Shown here piece by piece: positions 12,191-31,680 of a stretch of 64,000 nucleotides of DNA. The translations under genes were made by a program, and so were the position numbers. The notes beneath the pieces are model-generated. The model did not search any database and was not told where the DNA came from. It saw only the letters and a list, made by a program, of their open reading frames with translations. This DNA is from a virus, in the IMG/VR virus record IMGVR_UViG_3300020045_011333, positions 96,001 through 160,000 of that record. The stretch is one strand, 5' to 3'. Positions within the stretch are counted from its first letter, which is position 1, and each line of letters starts with the position of its first letter.

Positions 12191-13531
12191 TCAAATTACT
12201 ACCGTTAGTTTTTCTGCGGCACGAGTGACTGCGGTATAAAGCCACCTATATGAATCATCTCTAAATACGTTTGATTCATCGTGCACTATTACGTGATCCC
12301 ATTGACTTCCCTGTGAAATATGTGCGGTCACAACCCACCCCCAATCAACGTGATGATGTTTTTTCTTAGCCTCAAATACGCTTCTTTTGTCCCCCGTAAA
12401 GCCACCAGATTGTCTAAGATAATGTTCTTCAAACAAAGCTTGAATAGTAGTTAAATTTCTTTTAACTCCATCTTCATCTGTTGCACTAAGCGCAAAAGTT
12501 GTTCCACCATTAATTAATTCGTAATCTCTATCGCAAGTTAGGAATGTACCATTAACTAAATCTAGTGCAACTCTTGAATTTTTTCTGCATAGTAAAGGCT
12601 CACCTTCCATAATACCTACAAGATCATAACCGGCTGCTTTTCTAATTTTTTGAGTTAAACTCCATCGTTTTTTATTAGTACCACAAATTATTTGTGGATT
12701 TAAATCCATGTTTAAAGTTTCGTTATCATTTTTTCTTTTTATAATTTTAACTGTATCTCCCCAATTCCCTACTTCTATATCTCCACCTTTTCTGATAAAA
12801 TCAGCTAAAGCAATGATTGGATTATCGGCTGCCTGCCTATGAATTTCAGTAAGTAATGCATCTGGATTGTTACCACAGAAGCCCCAAGACCCTGCAACAG
12901 GTGGTAATTGCCCCGGATCACCAATAGCAATAACTGGAATACCAAATGACATGATATCAGCAGCCATTTCTTCATTTATCATTGAGGATTCATCAGTTAC
13001 AATTAAACTCATTGTTCTAATAGGACTTTCAGAATTTAATTGCCAAGTAGGCCCATCAGTGCTAATATAAGCTTTATCTAGATCGTGATTTAATTGTTTT
13101 AGCATTTTTTGAGCAGCACCAATATCGTAACGATTACCTTCAAAAAATACATCGGGCGCTTTATATTCAGTAGCTGTATGTAAAGATTTACCTAAATCTT
13201 CAACCTTTTTTTGCAGAACCTCAGCCTTAAGACTTTTTGGTCTATAAATAGAAGAGTGGATAGTTTTGGCCGAAGCATCTAGACCCATGGCTCTGAGTTT
13301 AGATGTTAAAACTTTACTAGCTTTTCCGCTAGGAGCCATAAAGGCCACTTCAGAAGCCGATAAACCACATTGATCAATGATATGGGGAACAACTGTCGTT
13401 TTTCCTGTTCCAGCCGCACCAGCGAACCAAAAATATCCTGGCTCTTCTTCTTTAGCCATCAACTTAAACCAAGTACCAGCTTTCTTAACTTCCTTAAATT
13501 GGGAGTCCGTTAATGTTATCGTCACGCTCAT
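12191..13531 (-). CDS. RecD/Dda-like SF1B DNA helicase
   Basis: GAAGTGKTT, APSGKA, DESSM, GDPGQLPPV, HISQGSQW and YTAVTRA. Confidence 0.9.
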   Translation of the reverse strand: MSVTITLTDSQFKEVKKAGTWFKLMAKEEEPGYFWFAGAAGTGKTTVVPHIIDQCGLSASEVAFMAPSGKASKVLTSKLRAMGLDASAKTIHSSIYRPKSLKAEVLQKKVEDLGKSLHTATEYKAPDVFFEGNRYDIGAAQKMLKQLNHDLDKAYISTDGPTWQLNSESPIRTMSLIVTDESSMINEEMAADIMSFGIPVIAIGDPGQLPPVAGSWGFCGNNPDALLTEIHRQAADNPIIALADFIRKGGDIEVGNWGDTVKIIKRKNDNETLNMDLNPQIICGTNKKRWSLTQKIRKAAGYDLVGIMEGEPLLCRKNSRVALDLVNGTFLTCDRDYELINGGTTFALSATDEDGVKRNLTTIQALFEEHYLRQSGGFTGDKRSVFEAKKKHHHVDWGWVVTAHISQGSQWDHVIVHDESNVFRDDSYRWLYTAVTRAAEKLTVVI

Positions 13532-14586
13532 TCTCCCATAGTTTTAATGAAATTATTAATTAAAATAGTATTAGATTCTTCATTTGTTTTTATAGAAATA
13601 GTTTCTCCTATCCCTATATCGTTAATTCCTATAATATTTCTTTTCATTCCCAATGAAATTTTTTGATCATATTTATTTGCTTTTCTAAATAACATGAAAG
13701 GATTAAAGTTAGTCTGTACCGTTAATACATAAGAATTATTACCAGAACTAGTTAATCTTTTGTTTATGCGTTTAACAGCCTTTCCACCTAAAGATTCTAT
13801 GACAAATTTTAAATCATCTACTAAAAATTCACTAATATTTGTGAACGAGGCATGACCATTACTACATGAACCATCAGAATCCATTAAGCCCCTAATCAAA
13901 TCTATTCTATCTTCTTCTGAAGAATATTTGTAAATATTAGGAATTCTTTTATCTTTTCCAGCGACATCCATAGCAATATTTTTTATTTCAGCGTAAAACG
14001 GATTTAATTTCCAATGGTATTCTGTAAAAAATTCTTGCTCATTGATAAATTTAAATCTTTTACAGCCTTTTCCTTGATTTACTGAAAGCCTAATACCTTC
14101 AAATAACCTACATTCTATATTAGATTGAATTTCGTCAGCATCTTTATTTTCAATTGCTAAATTTGCTTCTCTACTATTTAATCCTCCGTCTCCCAATAAC
14201 AGCCCAATTATATAAGGGTCAATTTTTAAAATTTTAGAATTGTAAAAATTAACTGATGAGGATAACGGAATAGAAAAATTGCTTCTAAAGCCTTTACTGC
14301 GACCTTTACTAAGTTTTAGTACATCTTGTTTGATTAAATCTAAAGTGGAGTAAAATTTAGTATATTTATTTTCTCTTTTTCTAGCTTCGAATTTATGATC
14401 GCCAGAAGCTATAATTATAGATTTATCAAGTAAATTTATTTGGTAAATTTTTTCTTTATTTTTGATTAAACAGATGATACTAACCGTTTTACCATTAGAG
14501 TTGTATATTAAATCACCAATTTCAATTTCAATAATAGATCGAGGCCCTGAAGGTGTTTGAATAATAGTTTCAGTGCTTAATGCCAT
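13528..14586 (-). mobile_element. Free-standing intein-derived protein: degenerate Hint domain + LAGLIDADG endonuclease
   Basis: N-terminal ALSTETIIQTPSG..IEIGD (block A), SGDHKF (block B), two LAGLIDADG motifs (IIGLLLGDGG, LIRGLMDSDGS), C-terminal LINNFIKTMGE lacking His-Asn; no exteins. Confidence 0.8.
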
Positions 14587-14609
14587 AATAAATCCTTATA
14601 AACTCAAAG

Positions 14610-14638
14610 GCTATATCACAAGCCTTTGAGTTTGTCAA
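14610..14638 (-). promoter_or_regulatory. Sigma70-type promoter overlapped by a 13-bp inverted repeat (14600-14633)
   Basis: TTGACA-N17-TATAGC; arms AAACTCAAAGGCT / AGCCTTTGAGTTT. Confidence 0.75.
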
Positions 14639-18014: not shown

Positions 18015-20078
18015 TTAGTGAGTCGAACCCCAATTCAAACCAATCTTATATTCAGCCGCAACAGGTAATTTAAATTTAAAATAATCACCCGCTTCACCTG
18101 CCGCCACGGCTGAAATTTCACCAGCTTCTTTAGCAATTGCCTCTAGAACTGAAACCTGAATCTCATCATGCACAAAGGCCATCATGGCAAAATCACCATC
18201 CCAAGAATGGACGTAACCCTTTGATTCCATTATTTCTTCAAATAACAGAACCCATTTCTTAGCAATCATAGCACCAGCGTTTTGAAGCAAAGTATTAAGT
18301 GCTGCGTGTTGCGCTCTGATATAGAGACGGCGACCATCAATACCTTCAATGAAACCACGACGAGCTTCATTTTTAAGAAGTTTCATTAGTTTTTTAAGAG
18401 CAGGAATGTTTCTTAAGAATTTTTCTGTTAGTTCTTTTCCAATACGAATTTGAGTCGCTTGGTTTGAAAAAGGTGCAACTATAGATCCTATTTTTTCTGG
18501 TCCTGCACCATAAAGTAGAGCGTATATGAATGTCTTCGCTTGGTCACGACTTTCCAAACCAGCAGCGTTCATATTGACGGTATGGATATCACCTTCAAGC
18601 AATTCACGGCCATATTCGCCATCGTCAAACTGAGCCATGTAGTGAGCTAAGCAGCGAAGTTCGATACCAGACAAGTCAGAACCCATCATGACGAATGGCG
18701 ACGTAGTATAGAACAATGAGCGGCACTCATAGCCCCATCCACCTTCACGGCCCATCTTGATATTCTTATTCTTGTCTTTTGAGATAGCAGGAACTTGTCC
18801 AAGATTTGGCTTAGCGTGAGTACAACGACCTGTTACAGCACCACAAGGATTAACATAATGATGGATTTTATTTTCAGGCGTAACTAGTTTTAGCCAACCA
18901 TTATCACCATCTGCTAATTGACCTAATGTCTTGTTGACACTAAAATAATCGGCTAGAGTTGTAGCAATTGGGAATTGTTCTGAAGCATTTTTTAAAATAA
19001 TATCATCGATTTTGATATTACCTTTTTCAGTGAAGTCTTGAGGTTCCCAACCTTGTTCCATAAGTCTTGCCGCGACTTGCTGGCGAGAACCGGGATTAAA
19101 TTCTTTAAAGAAAATAGGCGTGAAGGGACAACCAGCCGTTCTATCACCACGGGCAGGGTCTTTATATTTTAGTGTACGTTTAGGAATAGTCATAGCTTCG
19201 ACTGGTTTATCTTGTGCATGATTAGCCAGAATTTCATAAACCATGTCTTCTAGTTCAGGATTGTTTATCGTGTCCCAATCTATTTCATTATAAGATTCTC
19301 TAAGTTTACCATAAGTTGTTTTACCTACAGCTTCCATTCGTGAAGGAAAATTTTCTTCACATTCTGTGGTAATTTTTTCTTTGCCATCGCGAAGTTCTTT
19401 TTCTAGAACTAGTGCAGCTTCAACATTAAAAGGAAAACCATTGGCTTCCTGCCTAACGCAATAATCAGCAAATTCATGTTCGAAGATAATAGGGAATTCT
19501 GGGTATGCCTGTTCCATAAGCATCTCCCAAAGAACAACGGTTACTTCAACGTCATTAGCGCAATATTCGTCCAGTTCTTCAGTGTAATTTCCCCACACAT
19601 AATCAAGAATTTCATCTTCATCTGTAATGCCTAGAAGTTTAGCTTCTTTTTCTTTTTTATCTGCATAATCTCCCTTGTATTTACCAACACGATAGCCCCA
19701 ACTATCGAGACTATGCTTGCCGATGAATTTAGCAGGGATTACACCACGCTCATGGAGGCGGAAATCCAGTTCTTTTTGGTGAGAAAACATGACACGAGTC
19801 ATGACAAGACTATCGCGAATCTTACCCTTAAGTTCAAATTGAGGATAAAGTTTTGATAATGCAGGAATATCGAATCCTAGCCCGTTGTGAGCCACGACCA
19901 TATCAGCGTCTTCTAAAAGAGCTAATCCTTCTTCGATATTGTGTTGTAGAAATTTAAACTTGCGCCCCGTTTCGAATTCTGTGATATGCATGACGTGAAC
20001 CTTCGTGATTCGGTTCAAAAGTCCGTCAGATTCTATATCGAAAATAGCTGTTTTTAATTTAATTTTTTTCTTTGACAT
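18015..20078 (-). CDS. DNA polymerase family A (T7-like) with 3'-5' exonuclease
   Basis: FDIESDG, HNGLGFD, SDLSGIELR, RDQAKTFIYALLYG and VHDEIQ. Confidence 0.95.
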   Translation of the reverse strand: MSKKKIKLKTAIFDIESDGLLNRITKVHVMHITEFETGRKFKFLQHNIEEGLALLEDADMVVAHNGLGFDIPALSKLYPQFELKGKIRDSLVMTRVMFSHQKELDFRLHERGVIPAKFIGKHSLDSWGYRVGKYKGDYADKKEKEAKLLGITDEDEILDYVWGNYTEELDEYCANDVEVTVVLWEMLMEQAYPEFPIIFEHEFADYCVRQEANGFPFNVEAALVLEKELRDGKEKITTECEENFPSRMEAVGKTTYGKLRESYNEIDWDTINNPELEDMVYEILANHAQDKPVEAMTIPKRTLKYKDPARGDRTAGCPFTPIFFKEFNPGSRQQVAARLMEQGWEPQDFTEKGNIKIDDIILKNASEQFPIATTLADYFSVNKTLGQLADGDNGWLKLVTPENKIHHYVNPCGAVTGRCTHAKPNLGQVPAISKDKNKNIKMGREGGWGYECRSLFYTTSPFVMMGSDLSGIELRCLAHYMAQFDDGEYGRELLEGDIHTVNMNAAGLESRDQAKTFIYALLYGAGPEKIGSIVAPFSNQATQIRIGKELTEKFLRNIPALKKLMKLLKNEARRGFIEGIDGRRLYIRAQHAALNTLLQNAGAMIAKKWVLLFEEIMESKGYVHSWDGDFAMMAFVHDEIQVSVLEAIAKEAGEISAVAAGEAGDYFKFKLPVAAEYKIGLNWGSTH

Positions 20079-29940: not shown

Positions 29941-31680
29941 TCATGATGGTTTCCTATCTAGGGCTTCTTTAATCATTTTCAGCTTTTCTAAAACAATTTC
30001 CATCAAACGTTCTTCCAGTGAACCGGAAACAATGAGATAATGAATCAAGGCGTGAGCCTTTTGGCCAATCCTGTGAATTCTATCTTCACCTTGCTCAAGC
30101 AAAGCAGGGACGAAGCACAATTCGCCCATGACAAGATTCCATGCCTCAGTAAGGGTGATTCCGACACCTGCGGCATTTATATTTCCGATGAACAACCTAC
30201 AGTTATCATCATTTTGAAACCGTTCAACAGATTCATTTTTCTCTTTATTAGACATTCCACCAATAAATTTGACAGAAATATCTTCGAACGCGGCTGCTAC
30301 TTTATGAGCCACGGCGCGATGGACGCAAAGAAAAACTACTTTCTCACCGCTGTCAAGTAAATTTCTAACGTATTCAATCATCATTGAAAGTTTGGCTAAA
30401 CCAATTTCTTCCCTAGCTTGAGACATAGCTTCAAAATGAGAAGCTTCGTAATCATCATAATCATCTTCTTCACTGAAATTTTTAGTTCTTTCGTGAATAT
30501 TATCAATGAGTTTTCGTAATTCTTTATCTGTAATTTCTTGATAATCTTCTTCAGTCTTTTCACCGCTCATAATCATGAGGGCTTTAAGATTATCAGCAAA
30601 GATTTGCTTTTCTTTCTTGACTAACTTTGAAAGTCCATCATTCGGTAGTGTAACTATCTGCCTCCGTTTAGGAGGAAGCTCTTTCAAAACATCATCCTTT
30701 AGGCGACGAATCATGAAAGTTGTTCTGAGAAGTTCTTGAAACTCTGTTAGATTATCTGTTCCACTTGTATCCCAACCCCAAGGAGTTTCAAATGCGGCGC
30801 AGAATTTCTTTACGAATTTAATATAGTTACCAAAAACATTCTCGTGACCAAACGAAGAAATCATCACCCACATATCTAGAGGCTTGTTTAAGATAGGTGT
30901 ACCAGTCAAGAAAATTCTTTTAAGTGCCGGGATAGGAGCTAAACGATCACTTTTCTTTTTGCCTTGATAACCCAAGACTTGCTTAGTTTTTCCTGCTTTT
31001 TCATTTTTCAGAACGTGAGCTTCATCACAGACTAGAATATCCCAAGTCTTGGAATGAATTTTATCTCTGAATTTTTCTAGCATATCATAGTTTATGATAA
31101 CTACATTATCATCTTCGGGCCAAATATATTCAGTAGTTGATTTTTTAGTCCCTTCACTATCTATAATAATTTTTGGTTTGGTGTGAGCTATCCCAATAGT
31201 TAGACCAAGTTCTGGCCTGATCCATTTGATTGCTTCTTTTTCCCAATTAAGTTTTAGAGAAGCAGGAACTATAAGCAATACATTTTTAACTTTAGATGCA
31301 TTATTAATTACACCTAGTGCTTGGATAGTTTTGCCAAGACCCGGTTGATCCGCAATCAATGTATCATCACGCTCTAGTGCAAACGCAATACCGGCACGTT
31401 GAAACGGAAGATAGGATAGACCTTCAGGAACTAATAAAACATCATCATAATCTGTCGCATAACTTGCTTCAATTAATTGTTGCTTAATTATCTTAAGATT
31501 ATCCAACCTTTCACGGGCCGAATCAACACAATTCTCATAGAATTTCCGAGCCACATCATCATCTGATGTAACCCATTTACCTTCTATAAATTTAAAGCCT
31601 TGACGCTTTAGAACAAGACGTTCTTCAAAAGTACAACGGGCTACGTATAACCCGTTGATACGATTAATTTTTATTGTCAT
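29941..31680 (-). CDS. SNF2-family (HARP/SMARCAL1-like) helicase
   Basis: DQPGLGKTIQ, CDEAHVLK, LTGTP, RRLKDDV, GVGITLT and QGEDRIHRIGQ. Confidence 0.9.
   Translation of the reverse strand: MTIKINRINGLYVARCTFEERLVLKRQGFKFIEGKWVTSDDDVARKFYENCVDSARERLDNLKIIKQQLIEASYATDYDDVLLVPEGLSYLPFQRAGIAFALERDDTLIADQPGLGKTIQALGVINNASKVKNVLLIVPASLKLNWEKEAIKWIRPELGLTIGIAHTKPKIIIDSEGTKKSTTEYIWPEDDNVVIINYDMLEKFRDKIHSKTWDILVCDEAHVLKNEKAGKTKQVLGYQGKKKSDRLAPIPALKRIFLTGTPILNKPLDMWVMISSFGHENVFGNYIKFVKKFCAAFETPWGWDTSGTDNLTEFQELLRTTFMIRRLKDDVLKELPPKRRQIVTLPNDGLSKLVKKEKQIFADNLKALMIMSGEKTEEDYQEITDKELRKLIDNIHERTKNFSEEDDYDDYEASHFEAMSQAREEIGLAKLSMMIEYVRNLLDSGEKVVFLCVHRAVAHKVAAAFEDISVKFIGGMSNKEKNESVERFQNDDNCRLFIGNINAAGVGITLTEAWNLVMGELCFVPALLEQGEDRIHRIGQKAHALIHYLIVSGSLEERLMEIVLEKLKMIKEALDRKPS

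Follow-up and report, generated by a model that had tools for sequence, protein, structure and literature searches.

The 64,000-nucleotide window analysed here, bases 96001-160000 of the virus record IMGVR_UViG_3300020045_011333, carries an open reading frame (ORF), P0001, that is probably a class 3 intein of a P-loop NTPase which has left the frame of its host gene and now persists as a free-standing homing endonuclease gene. P0001 (13528-14586, minus strand) is intact and encodes 352 amino acids (aa), beginning M-A-L-S-T-E-T and ending F-I-K-T-M-G-E; it comprises the N-terminal part of a Hint domain, a LAGLIDADG domain with two motifs and the C-terminal part of the Hint domain, and it has no exteins. 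The product is probably a mobile nuclease, because key residues for splicing have been lost, the DNA-cutting site has been kept, and relatives of the virus vary in whether they carry the gene. P0001 directly precedes a Dda/RecD-like helicase (12191-13525), the probable former host and a candidate target; the features of the gene, its leader and the two adjoining genes are all given on the minus strand.

Homology to class 3 inteins and predicted fold

Homologues of P0001 were sought profile-free against 1.84 billion representatives (E <= 1e-3), which returned 13,324 matches, nearly all embedded in proteins of 550-2200 aa. Beyond its own small family the nearest homologues are true inteins placed after the GK of P-loops, the result for which the first-pass annotation of this DNA, made from the letters alone, had suggested looking. 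The junctions of the embedded matches read GxGK|A(Q/L)P...T-H-N|T/S, and the relatives of P0001 are therefore Ala-first inteins that split the Walker A loop after its Lys. The consensus of 51 embedded relatives carries the class 3 signature, as defined in PMC2807308, with D-H-L-W in block B, Cys in block F and T-H-N in block G. Over its whole length P0001 is collinear with the class 3 inteins that sit between K and T of the Walker A GK|T in phage P-loop NTPases. Its Ala2 corresponds to intein residue 1 and its Met1 to the P-loop Lys (-1) of the embedded relatives, in agreement with the Ala-initiated block A after Met that had been read from the sequence at first pass.

Only one Pfam family, LAGLIDADG_3 (PF14528), matches P0001 above its cut-off, and the curated profiles Hint_2, Intein_splicing and TIGR01445 score below theirs. 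PHROG profiles of intein-bearing large terminases cover residues 2-349 through their middle (intein) part, and the N-terminus of P0001 matches the solved gp41-1 intein with an E-value of 2.6e-7. An AlphaFold2 model built on the alignment of relatives (pLDDT 94, pTM 0.92) has its best full-chain structural match in PI-SceI, the VMA1 intein endonuclease also known as VDE (1ef0, 1vde and 1lws; TMq 0.70-0.72, E ~5e-19), at about 14% sequence identity. Further matches are the Tli and Pho VMA inteins and PI-PfuI, with partial matches to I-DmoI and the gp41-1 intein. A Hint (splicing-domain) plus LAGLIDADG fold is thus predicted with high confidence, and the Hint fold on which the first-pass reading had been staked is present in the model. 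By these matches and the alignment of relatives, the N-terminal Hint part covers approximately residues 1-108 (14263-14586; gp41-1 match and relatives' alignment), the endonuclease domain approximately residues 109-300 (13687-14262; PF14528, I-DmoI and PI-SceI matches) and the C-terminal Hint part, with former blocks F and G, 13540-13686. The protein ends at block G, and neither the model nor the Pfam scan contains a zinc-finger C-terminal domain.

Loss of splicing residues and retention of the nuclease site

Two sister genes, P0010 (357 aa; one ENA contig) and P0029 (351 aa; six JGI/Logan contigs), match P0001 from residue 1 to the end and allow the fate of each intein block to be followed. 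The former block B (14389-14400) reads D-H-K-F where the family has D-H-L-W: the Asp-His pair noted at first pass is there, His64 is retained and Trp has become Phe, and both sisters carry Gln instead of the block B His. In block F, Ser331 (13594-13596) occupies the place of the class 3 nucleophile Cys, just as the first-pass annotation had it; the sisters have Ala and Ser, while Cys is found in more than 90% of the 51 embedded relatives. Block G, which in the family reads T-H-N followed by Thr or Ser, has been replaced by a tail T-M-G-E and a TGA stop (13528-13542), with T-M-G at the T-H-N position as first described and only the Thr retained; the sisters end T-C-G-D and V-S-G-D.

The flanks have nothing to offer a splicing reaction either. 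The upstream gene of 266 aa and the downstream helicase are both complete, as had been stated, the latter with an uninterrupted Walker A motif G-T-G-K-T (13397-13411), and P0001 itself begins Met-Ala and stops three codons past the block G Thr; with both neighbour genes complete, there is nothing for P0001 to splice. P0001 is functionally not an intein: the exteins, the block F Cys, the block G T-H-N and the +1 nucleophile are all missing. The nuclease has fared differently. Both LAGLIDADG motifs that had been called intact, L-L-G-D-G (residues 130-134, catalytic Asp133; motif 1 at 14185-14211) and G-L-M-D-S-D-G (residues 233-239, catalytic Asp238; motif 2 at 13870-13896), are invariant across the three free-standing genes and the embedded relatives, and the proportion of positions invariant among the three members is about 12-13% in the Hint parts versus about 28% in the nuclease domain. 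From its residues, P0001 cannot splice, yet it looks able to cut DNA, which is the combination of splicing lost and nuclease kept that had been proposed for it.

Occupied and empty loci

Relatives of the helicase locus were reached through protein searches and contig look-ups; a scan of viral contigs yielded only three loci, and a metagenome scan with the helicase alignment gave no confirmed relative. Both P0010 and P0029 sit between an equivalent gene of 266/267 aa and the helicase. Relatives without the ORF, which the first-pass annotation had proposed to look for, turned up in four lineages (L011, L015, L016 and L017/L018), where only about 70 bp separate the upstream gene from a helicase that is 89%, 82%, 64% and 61% identical to that of the window, respectively. 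The ORF is thus polymorphic in presence at one precise site, with three occupied and four empty lineages of a single phage group. Alignment of the junctions places the insert, which consists of the ORF alone, between the Shine-Dalgarno sequence (SD) of the helicase and the helicase start codon; by this comparison the leader hairpin and SD that were formerly the helicase's now serve the inserted ORF.

Several further features of the locus bear on mobility. The three free-standing ORFs are 32-37% identical, against 59-89% for the flanking proteins, and the ORF evolves about three times faster than its neighbours. In each occupied locus the ORF is a low-GC island, with a GC content of 27 versus 37-41 in the window, and 34 versus 41-49 and 34 versus 41-50 in the other two. 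There are two types of helicase allele, each including carriers and non-carriers, and the types of the upstream gene are discordant with those of the helicase, so that recombination at this junction must be frequent. In the pair L007 and L008 (L007:1146-3534 against L008:8001-10387) divergence breaks at the ORF start and at the boundary between helicase and dNMP kinase: the two sequences share 75-85% of their nucleotides through the upstream gene and the leader, as far as the ORF start, then 40-60% within the ORF and 55-65% across the helicase, where the 5' end is the most divergent part, and about 80% again in the next gene. With a divergent block between similar flanks, the ORF and the helicase appear to be one exchanged cassette in this pair.

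Leader, ribosome-binding sites and the start of the helicase

The 72-bp leader that now serves P0001 (14587-14658) holds a TTGACA (14633-14638), a 13-bp hairpin (14600-14633; dG -22.5, z -5.2) and the SD AAGGA (14593-14597), 6 nt ahead of the ATG. The claim that P0001 has its own ribosome-binding site is thereby borne out; its own promoter, claimed in the same breath, is not, as a consensus scan found no sigma-70-type site for P0001 on its strand and the leader is that of the helicase in relatives lacking the ORF, where the same kind of hairpin and SD stands directly ahead of the helicase gene. The hairpin is probably the terminator of the upstream gene. It is a conserved terminator or leader structure rather than a nuclease-specific one, since relatives without the ORF have counterparts of different sequence; an autorepression operator within it was considered and is ruled out on the same grounds.

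The helicase in turn appears to have been given a new ribosome-binding site. The Gly-Glu codons at the end of P0001 spell GGAGA, 7 nt before GTG 13525, and at the two other occupied loci 5-6 nt separate GGAGA from the ATG of the helicase; from its sequence and spacing, the GGAGA in the final codons of P0001 acts as the helicase SD. The Gly followed by Asp or Glu that the three genes share at the old His-Asn position is accounted for by this, as its codons form the helicase ribosome-binding site. Read from GTG 13525 the helicase has 444 aa, matching all seven homologues, while the ORF listing gives ATG 13531; the 7-nt spacing from GGAG(A) and the length of the homologues make GTG 13525 the probable start, and with this start P0001 and the helicase do not overlap.

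Probable origin in the adjoining helicase

The first-pass annotation had named the P-loops of the RecD-like and the SNF2 helicases of the window as candidate target sites, and a careful tree (LG+C20, 47 sequences) favours the RecD-like gene as the earlier host and candidate target. In this tree the three free genes form one clade (100/99) inside a group of 12 rows (93/80), which is enclosed in turn by sets of 14 and 20 rows, both starred. Of the nine other rows in the 12-row group, eight are helicase inteins with exteins 26-46% identical to the Dda-like helicase of the window, and their insertion point corresponds to window position 13400|13399, about 128 nt from the P0001 stop. The next group outward consists of SNF2 inteins. 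A quick LG+G4 tree left the origin unresolved and grouped all free-standing proteins with weak support; that grouping, which the LG+C20 tree separated, is likely an effect of long branches or composition.

The favoured reading of the tree and the locus is that P0001 is a Dda-helicase intein that left codon 44/45 for the position immediately ahead of codon 1, a move of about 130 bp. One may also speculate that an intein inserted in frame right behind the helicase start codon and was later uncoupled in translation, a route suggested by a 6-mer in L008 that may be left over from the His-Asn codons and by Ser or Thr at helicase codon 2 in five of the seven alleles. The SNF2 connection has its own evidence. 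In two more distant phages, Erythrobacter phage L02 and Brevundimonas phage Domovoi, class 3 inteins interrupt the SNF2 helicase at G-L-G-K|T (L005:5605-8427 and L006:5623-8601); the first residues of these inteins are Gly and Met rather than Ala, and the SNF2-type gene of the window (29941-31680, minus strand), which makes a second candidate target and origin, is intein-free with the matching G-L-G-K|T intact.

Proposed homing cycle and candidate targets

In the mechanism that we propose, the ancestor was an intein in the Walker A motif of the Dda-like helicase, the very gene that P0001 now precedes, and the present protein would be an active monomeric LAGLIDADG nuclease. The Hint domain of PI-SceI helps to bind DNA, and the old Hint domain of P0001 would be retained as a scaffold and DNA-binding surface only, as in PI-SceI and HO. 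During mixed infection the nuclease would cut helicase loci that lack the gene, either among the codons of the P-loop, some 128 nt downstream, or where leader and start codon meet and the insert is found in carriers, and repair off the carrier genome would copy P0001 in along with adjoining helicase sequence. Homing could thus proceed without splicing, as in the yeast WHO elements and the T4 Seg/Mob genes; on arrival P0001 would take over the helicase leader and provide the helicase with the new GGAGA ribosome-binding site.

Both the P-loop codons and the leader/start junction are candidate targets. We lean towards the P-loop, because retention of the ancestral specificity is the simpler assumption and because other lineages also abut the 5' ends of P-loop genes. 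Three further extein-less Hint plus LAGLIDADG lineages adjoin the 5' end of a P-loop gene with its Walker A motif 22-64 codons from the start: members of the P0195 family precede an AAA_24 ATPase, P0222 precedes a RecA-like gene, and P0229 and its SNF2 neighbour are divergently oriented. With the P0001 family, 4 of the 7 lineages with readable neighbours are placed in this way. On unrelated phage-like contigs, four extein-less genes of this layout lack the terminal His-Asn (L014:5001-6107, L019:1750-2844, L021:3001-4047 and L022:3001-3975); for three the neighbour, met at its 5' end, is one of these P-loop genes (AAA_24, RecA-like, SNF2), and the fourth precedes a portal gene. Between the window and the non-carrier L011, twelve consecutive helicase codons differ over the Walker A motif (13388-13423, codons 37-48), 11 of the 12 synonymously, and no other run of the kind in the gene is as long.

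A number of observations weigh against the proposal that P0001 is an escaped, homing intein of the adjoining helicase. The twelve-codon run is not significant, with about 0.1-0.2 such runs expected by chance, and in the 5' windows of the helicase the divergence between carriers and non-carriers does not exceed that of control pairs. Three other free-standing lineages are not beside a P-loop gene (P0238, which precedes a portal gene, and P0212 and P0262, which precede unknown genes). Forcing the free genes into the SNF2 group costs 5.2 log-likelihood units and is not rejected (AU p 0.106). The relatives are too diverged, with saturated synonymous sites, to show a recent homing tract, and there are no decayed copies of the ORF among the loci found, although a homing cycle predicts some. 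Lastly, if the P-loop is the target, the P-loops of the carrier's own helicase and SNF2 genes must be resistant.

Alternative explanations

An ORF that has stayed intact in three lineages despite divergence to about 33% identity, lies close against the helicase and provides its ribosome-binding site, and has left no pseudogene copies that could be seen, might be a domesticated intein that is kept for the benefit of the phage and no longer propagates itself, as is yeast HO. It might then, for instance, effect marker or competitor exclusion by cutting the DNA of rival phages or of the host, or bind DNA as a partner or regulator of the helicase operon. We consider domestication unlikely in view of the patchy distribution of the ORF, which four of the seven related lineages lack, among them the one whose helicase is nearest (89% identity), and of its fast evolution and low GC, which are typical of selfish endonuclease genes and not of fixed host functions. 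The same open frames bear on a bleaker reading, in which P0001 is an inactive intein remnant whose frame is still open by accident, or because function was lost recently, and which is heading for deletion. The block B Trp, the block F Cys and the terminal His-Asn have indeed been replaced, the Hint parts hold a smaller proportion of invariant positions than the nuclease domain, and the curated Hint/intein profiles score below cut-off, all of which a decaying relic would explain; three frames of 351-357 codons that remain open in AT-rich DNA despite such divergence, the invariance of both LAGLIDADG motifs and of other nuclease-domain residues, and a confidently predicted fold make such decay highly improbable.

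The SNF2 P-loop could be both the ancestral and the present target, with an escaped SNF2 intein having landed at an unrelated intergenic site. Class 3 inteins of distant relatives at the exact SNF2 site, one of them starting Met-Ala-Ser like P0001, the intein-free SNF2 gene of the window and the outcome of the AU test speak for this account, but the best tree places the free genes with the Dda-helicase inteins, and P0001 lies 15 kb from the SNF2 gene while in each of the three carriers the ORF is immediately next to the Dda-like helicase. The nuclease would moreover cut an intact SNF2 site in its own carrier genome unless that site were resistant, and we regard an SNF2 origin as improbable. 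The suspicion that a frameshift or misassembly conceals the exteins of an ordinary spliced intein, raised at first pass as an outcome that would undo the whole idea, is already refuted: the stand-alone layout recurs in independent ENA, JGI and Logan assemblies, the downstream helicase is complete with its own N-terminus and P-loop, the upstream gene closes with a stop and a hairpin, and both the nucleophile Cys and the terminal Asn are missing from P0001 itself.

Relation to known systems and significance

Inteins are thought to persist solely because splicing renders their insertion harmless, and to our knowledge the only exit from the intein life style described so far is that of the yeast HO/WHO lineage. 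P0001 suggests that a phage intein has made the same exit, with the steps still readable in its sequence: the gene begins and ends where the intein did, splicing residues have been replaced and the nuclease retained, a ribosome-binding site in the last codons keeps the helicase translated, and empty sites survive in relatives. A literature search found no account of a free-standing or orphan intein gene in phages or prokaryotes, which is weak evidence of novelty as subscription journals were barely covered. A recent survey of actinophage inteins describes out-of-frame and antisense endonucleases inside inteins and no escaped inteins.

The parentage of P0001 lies with the class 3 Walker A inteins, such as those of mycobacteriophage Bethlehem DnaB (PMC2807308) and of actinophage terminases, helicases and Cas4 (PMC5050341; bioRxiv 10.1101/2025.01.02.630785), with which it is collinear at up to about 39% identity. 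It shares with them the Ala first residue, the Hint plus LAGLIDADG layout and the block G Thr, and they are inserted after GK; unlike them it has no exteins, its key residues are replaced, and it has its own start codon and no need to splice. PI-SceI, its nearest structural match, belongs in contrast to class 1 and excises itself from VMA1 by splicing. The fractured genes that carry split inteins (Dassa et al. 2009, PMC2677866) resemble P0001 in their phage-like metagenomic origin and in an endonuclease uncoupled from splicing, and the likeness of the P0001 N-terminus to the gp41-1 intein is another link to them; however, their Hint halves stay fused to the exteins and splice in trans, whereas P0001 left with its Hint whole and its nuclease, and its host gene is in one piece.

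In our analysis P0001 probably works like a free-standing homing gene of the T4 Seg/Mob type, while its ancestry is closest to that of yeast WHO/HO. The T4-like Seg and Mob genes of 'intronless homing' (PMC2988022, PMC2790892) are likewise intergenic between conserved genes and patchy among relatives, and they cut within a few hundred bp of their insertion with co-conversion of the flanks, as is proposed for P0001; they are GIY-YIG or HNH enzymes without intein ancestry, whereas P0001 is a LAGLIDADG enzyme with a retained Hint domain. WHO/HO (PMC7282813; bioRxiv 10.64898/2026.08.13.744650) is, like P0001, a free-standing intein-like LAGLIDADG gene for which splicing is unneeded, which adjoins a conserved gene of essential type and shows high diversity and a pattern of presence and absence; its homing swaps the end of the adjacent gene for the carrier's version, as P0001 may do. 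The two differ in that P0001 is phage-borne, lacks a zinc finger, is of class 3 P-loop ancestry and lies upstream, at the 5' end, of its neighbour, whereas WHO lies downstream. WHO/HO are reported to cut the gene next door (PMC7282813; bioRxiv 10.64898/2026.08.13.744650), and cleavage of the neighbour by P0001 is a proposal.

A broader and distinctly tentative generalisation would be that phages hold the prokaryotic counterpart of the WHO elements, in which P-loop inteins repeatedly escape to the 5' flank of the same NTPase gene, drop splicing, keep Hint as a DNA-binding scaffold, home by cutting the P-loop DNA of the neighbour and carry a resistant 5' end along with them. This would add a third survival route for inteins besides splicing and splitting, and would entail an arms race over synonymous positions in a motif that ranks among the most conserved in biology. 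If the nuclease of P0001 is active, the free-standing genes provide enzyme engineering with a naturally diversified set of LAGLIDADG proteins, far apart in sequence, that probably target P-loop or leader DNA, and they would show selfish nucleases driving mosaicism at phage replication genes. Activity would also be a warning to annotators that the label 'LAGLIDADG protein' can hide a whole dead intein, given that the curated Hint profiles miss P0001.

Genome setting

The record from which the window is taken is a complete virus genome of 184,940 bp with terminal repeats, and the window has a GC content of 36.5%. P0001 lies within a minus-strand replication block in the order RecE/Cas4-like exonuclease, 266-aa gene, P0001, Dda/RecD-like helicase, dNMP kinase and ThyX. 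The 266-aa gene upstream of P0001 (14659-15459) is labelled nucleotidyltransferase by PHROG 9528 and has no Pfam match; its C-terminal end is an acidic stretch followed by a run of Arg. The family A polymerase of the window is 41-46% identical to the polymerases of Citromicrobium, Erythrobacter, Sphingobium and Caulobacter phages, which suggests that the replication genes are only distantly like those of large siphophages of Alphaproteobacteria. The same polymerase has 687 aa in the window (18015-20078) versus 906 aa, with a DUF4326 domain, in the L008-type relative (L008:1972-4692).

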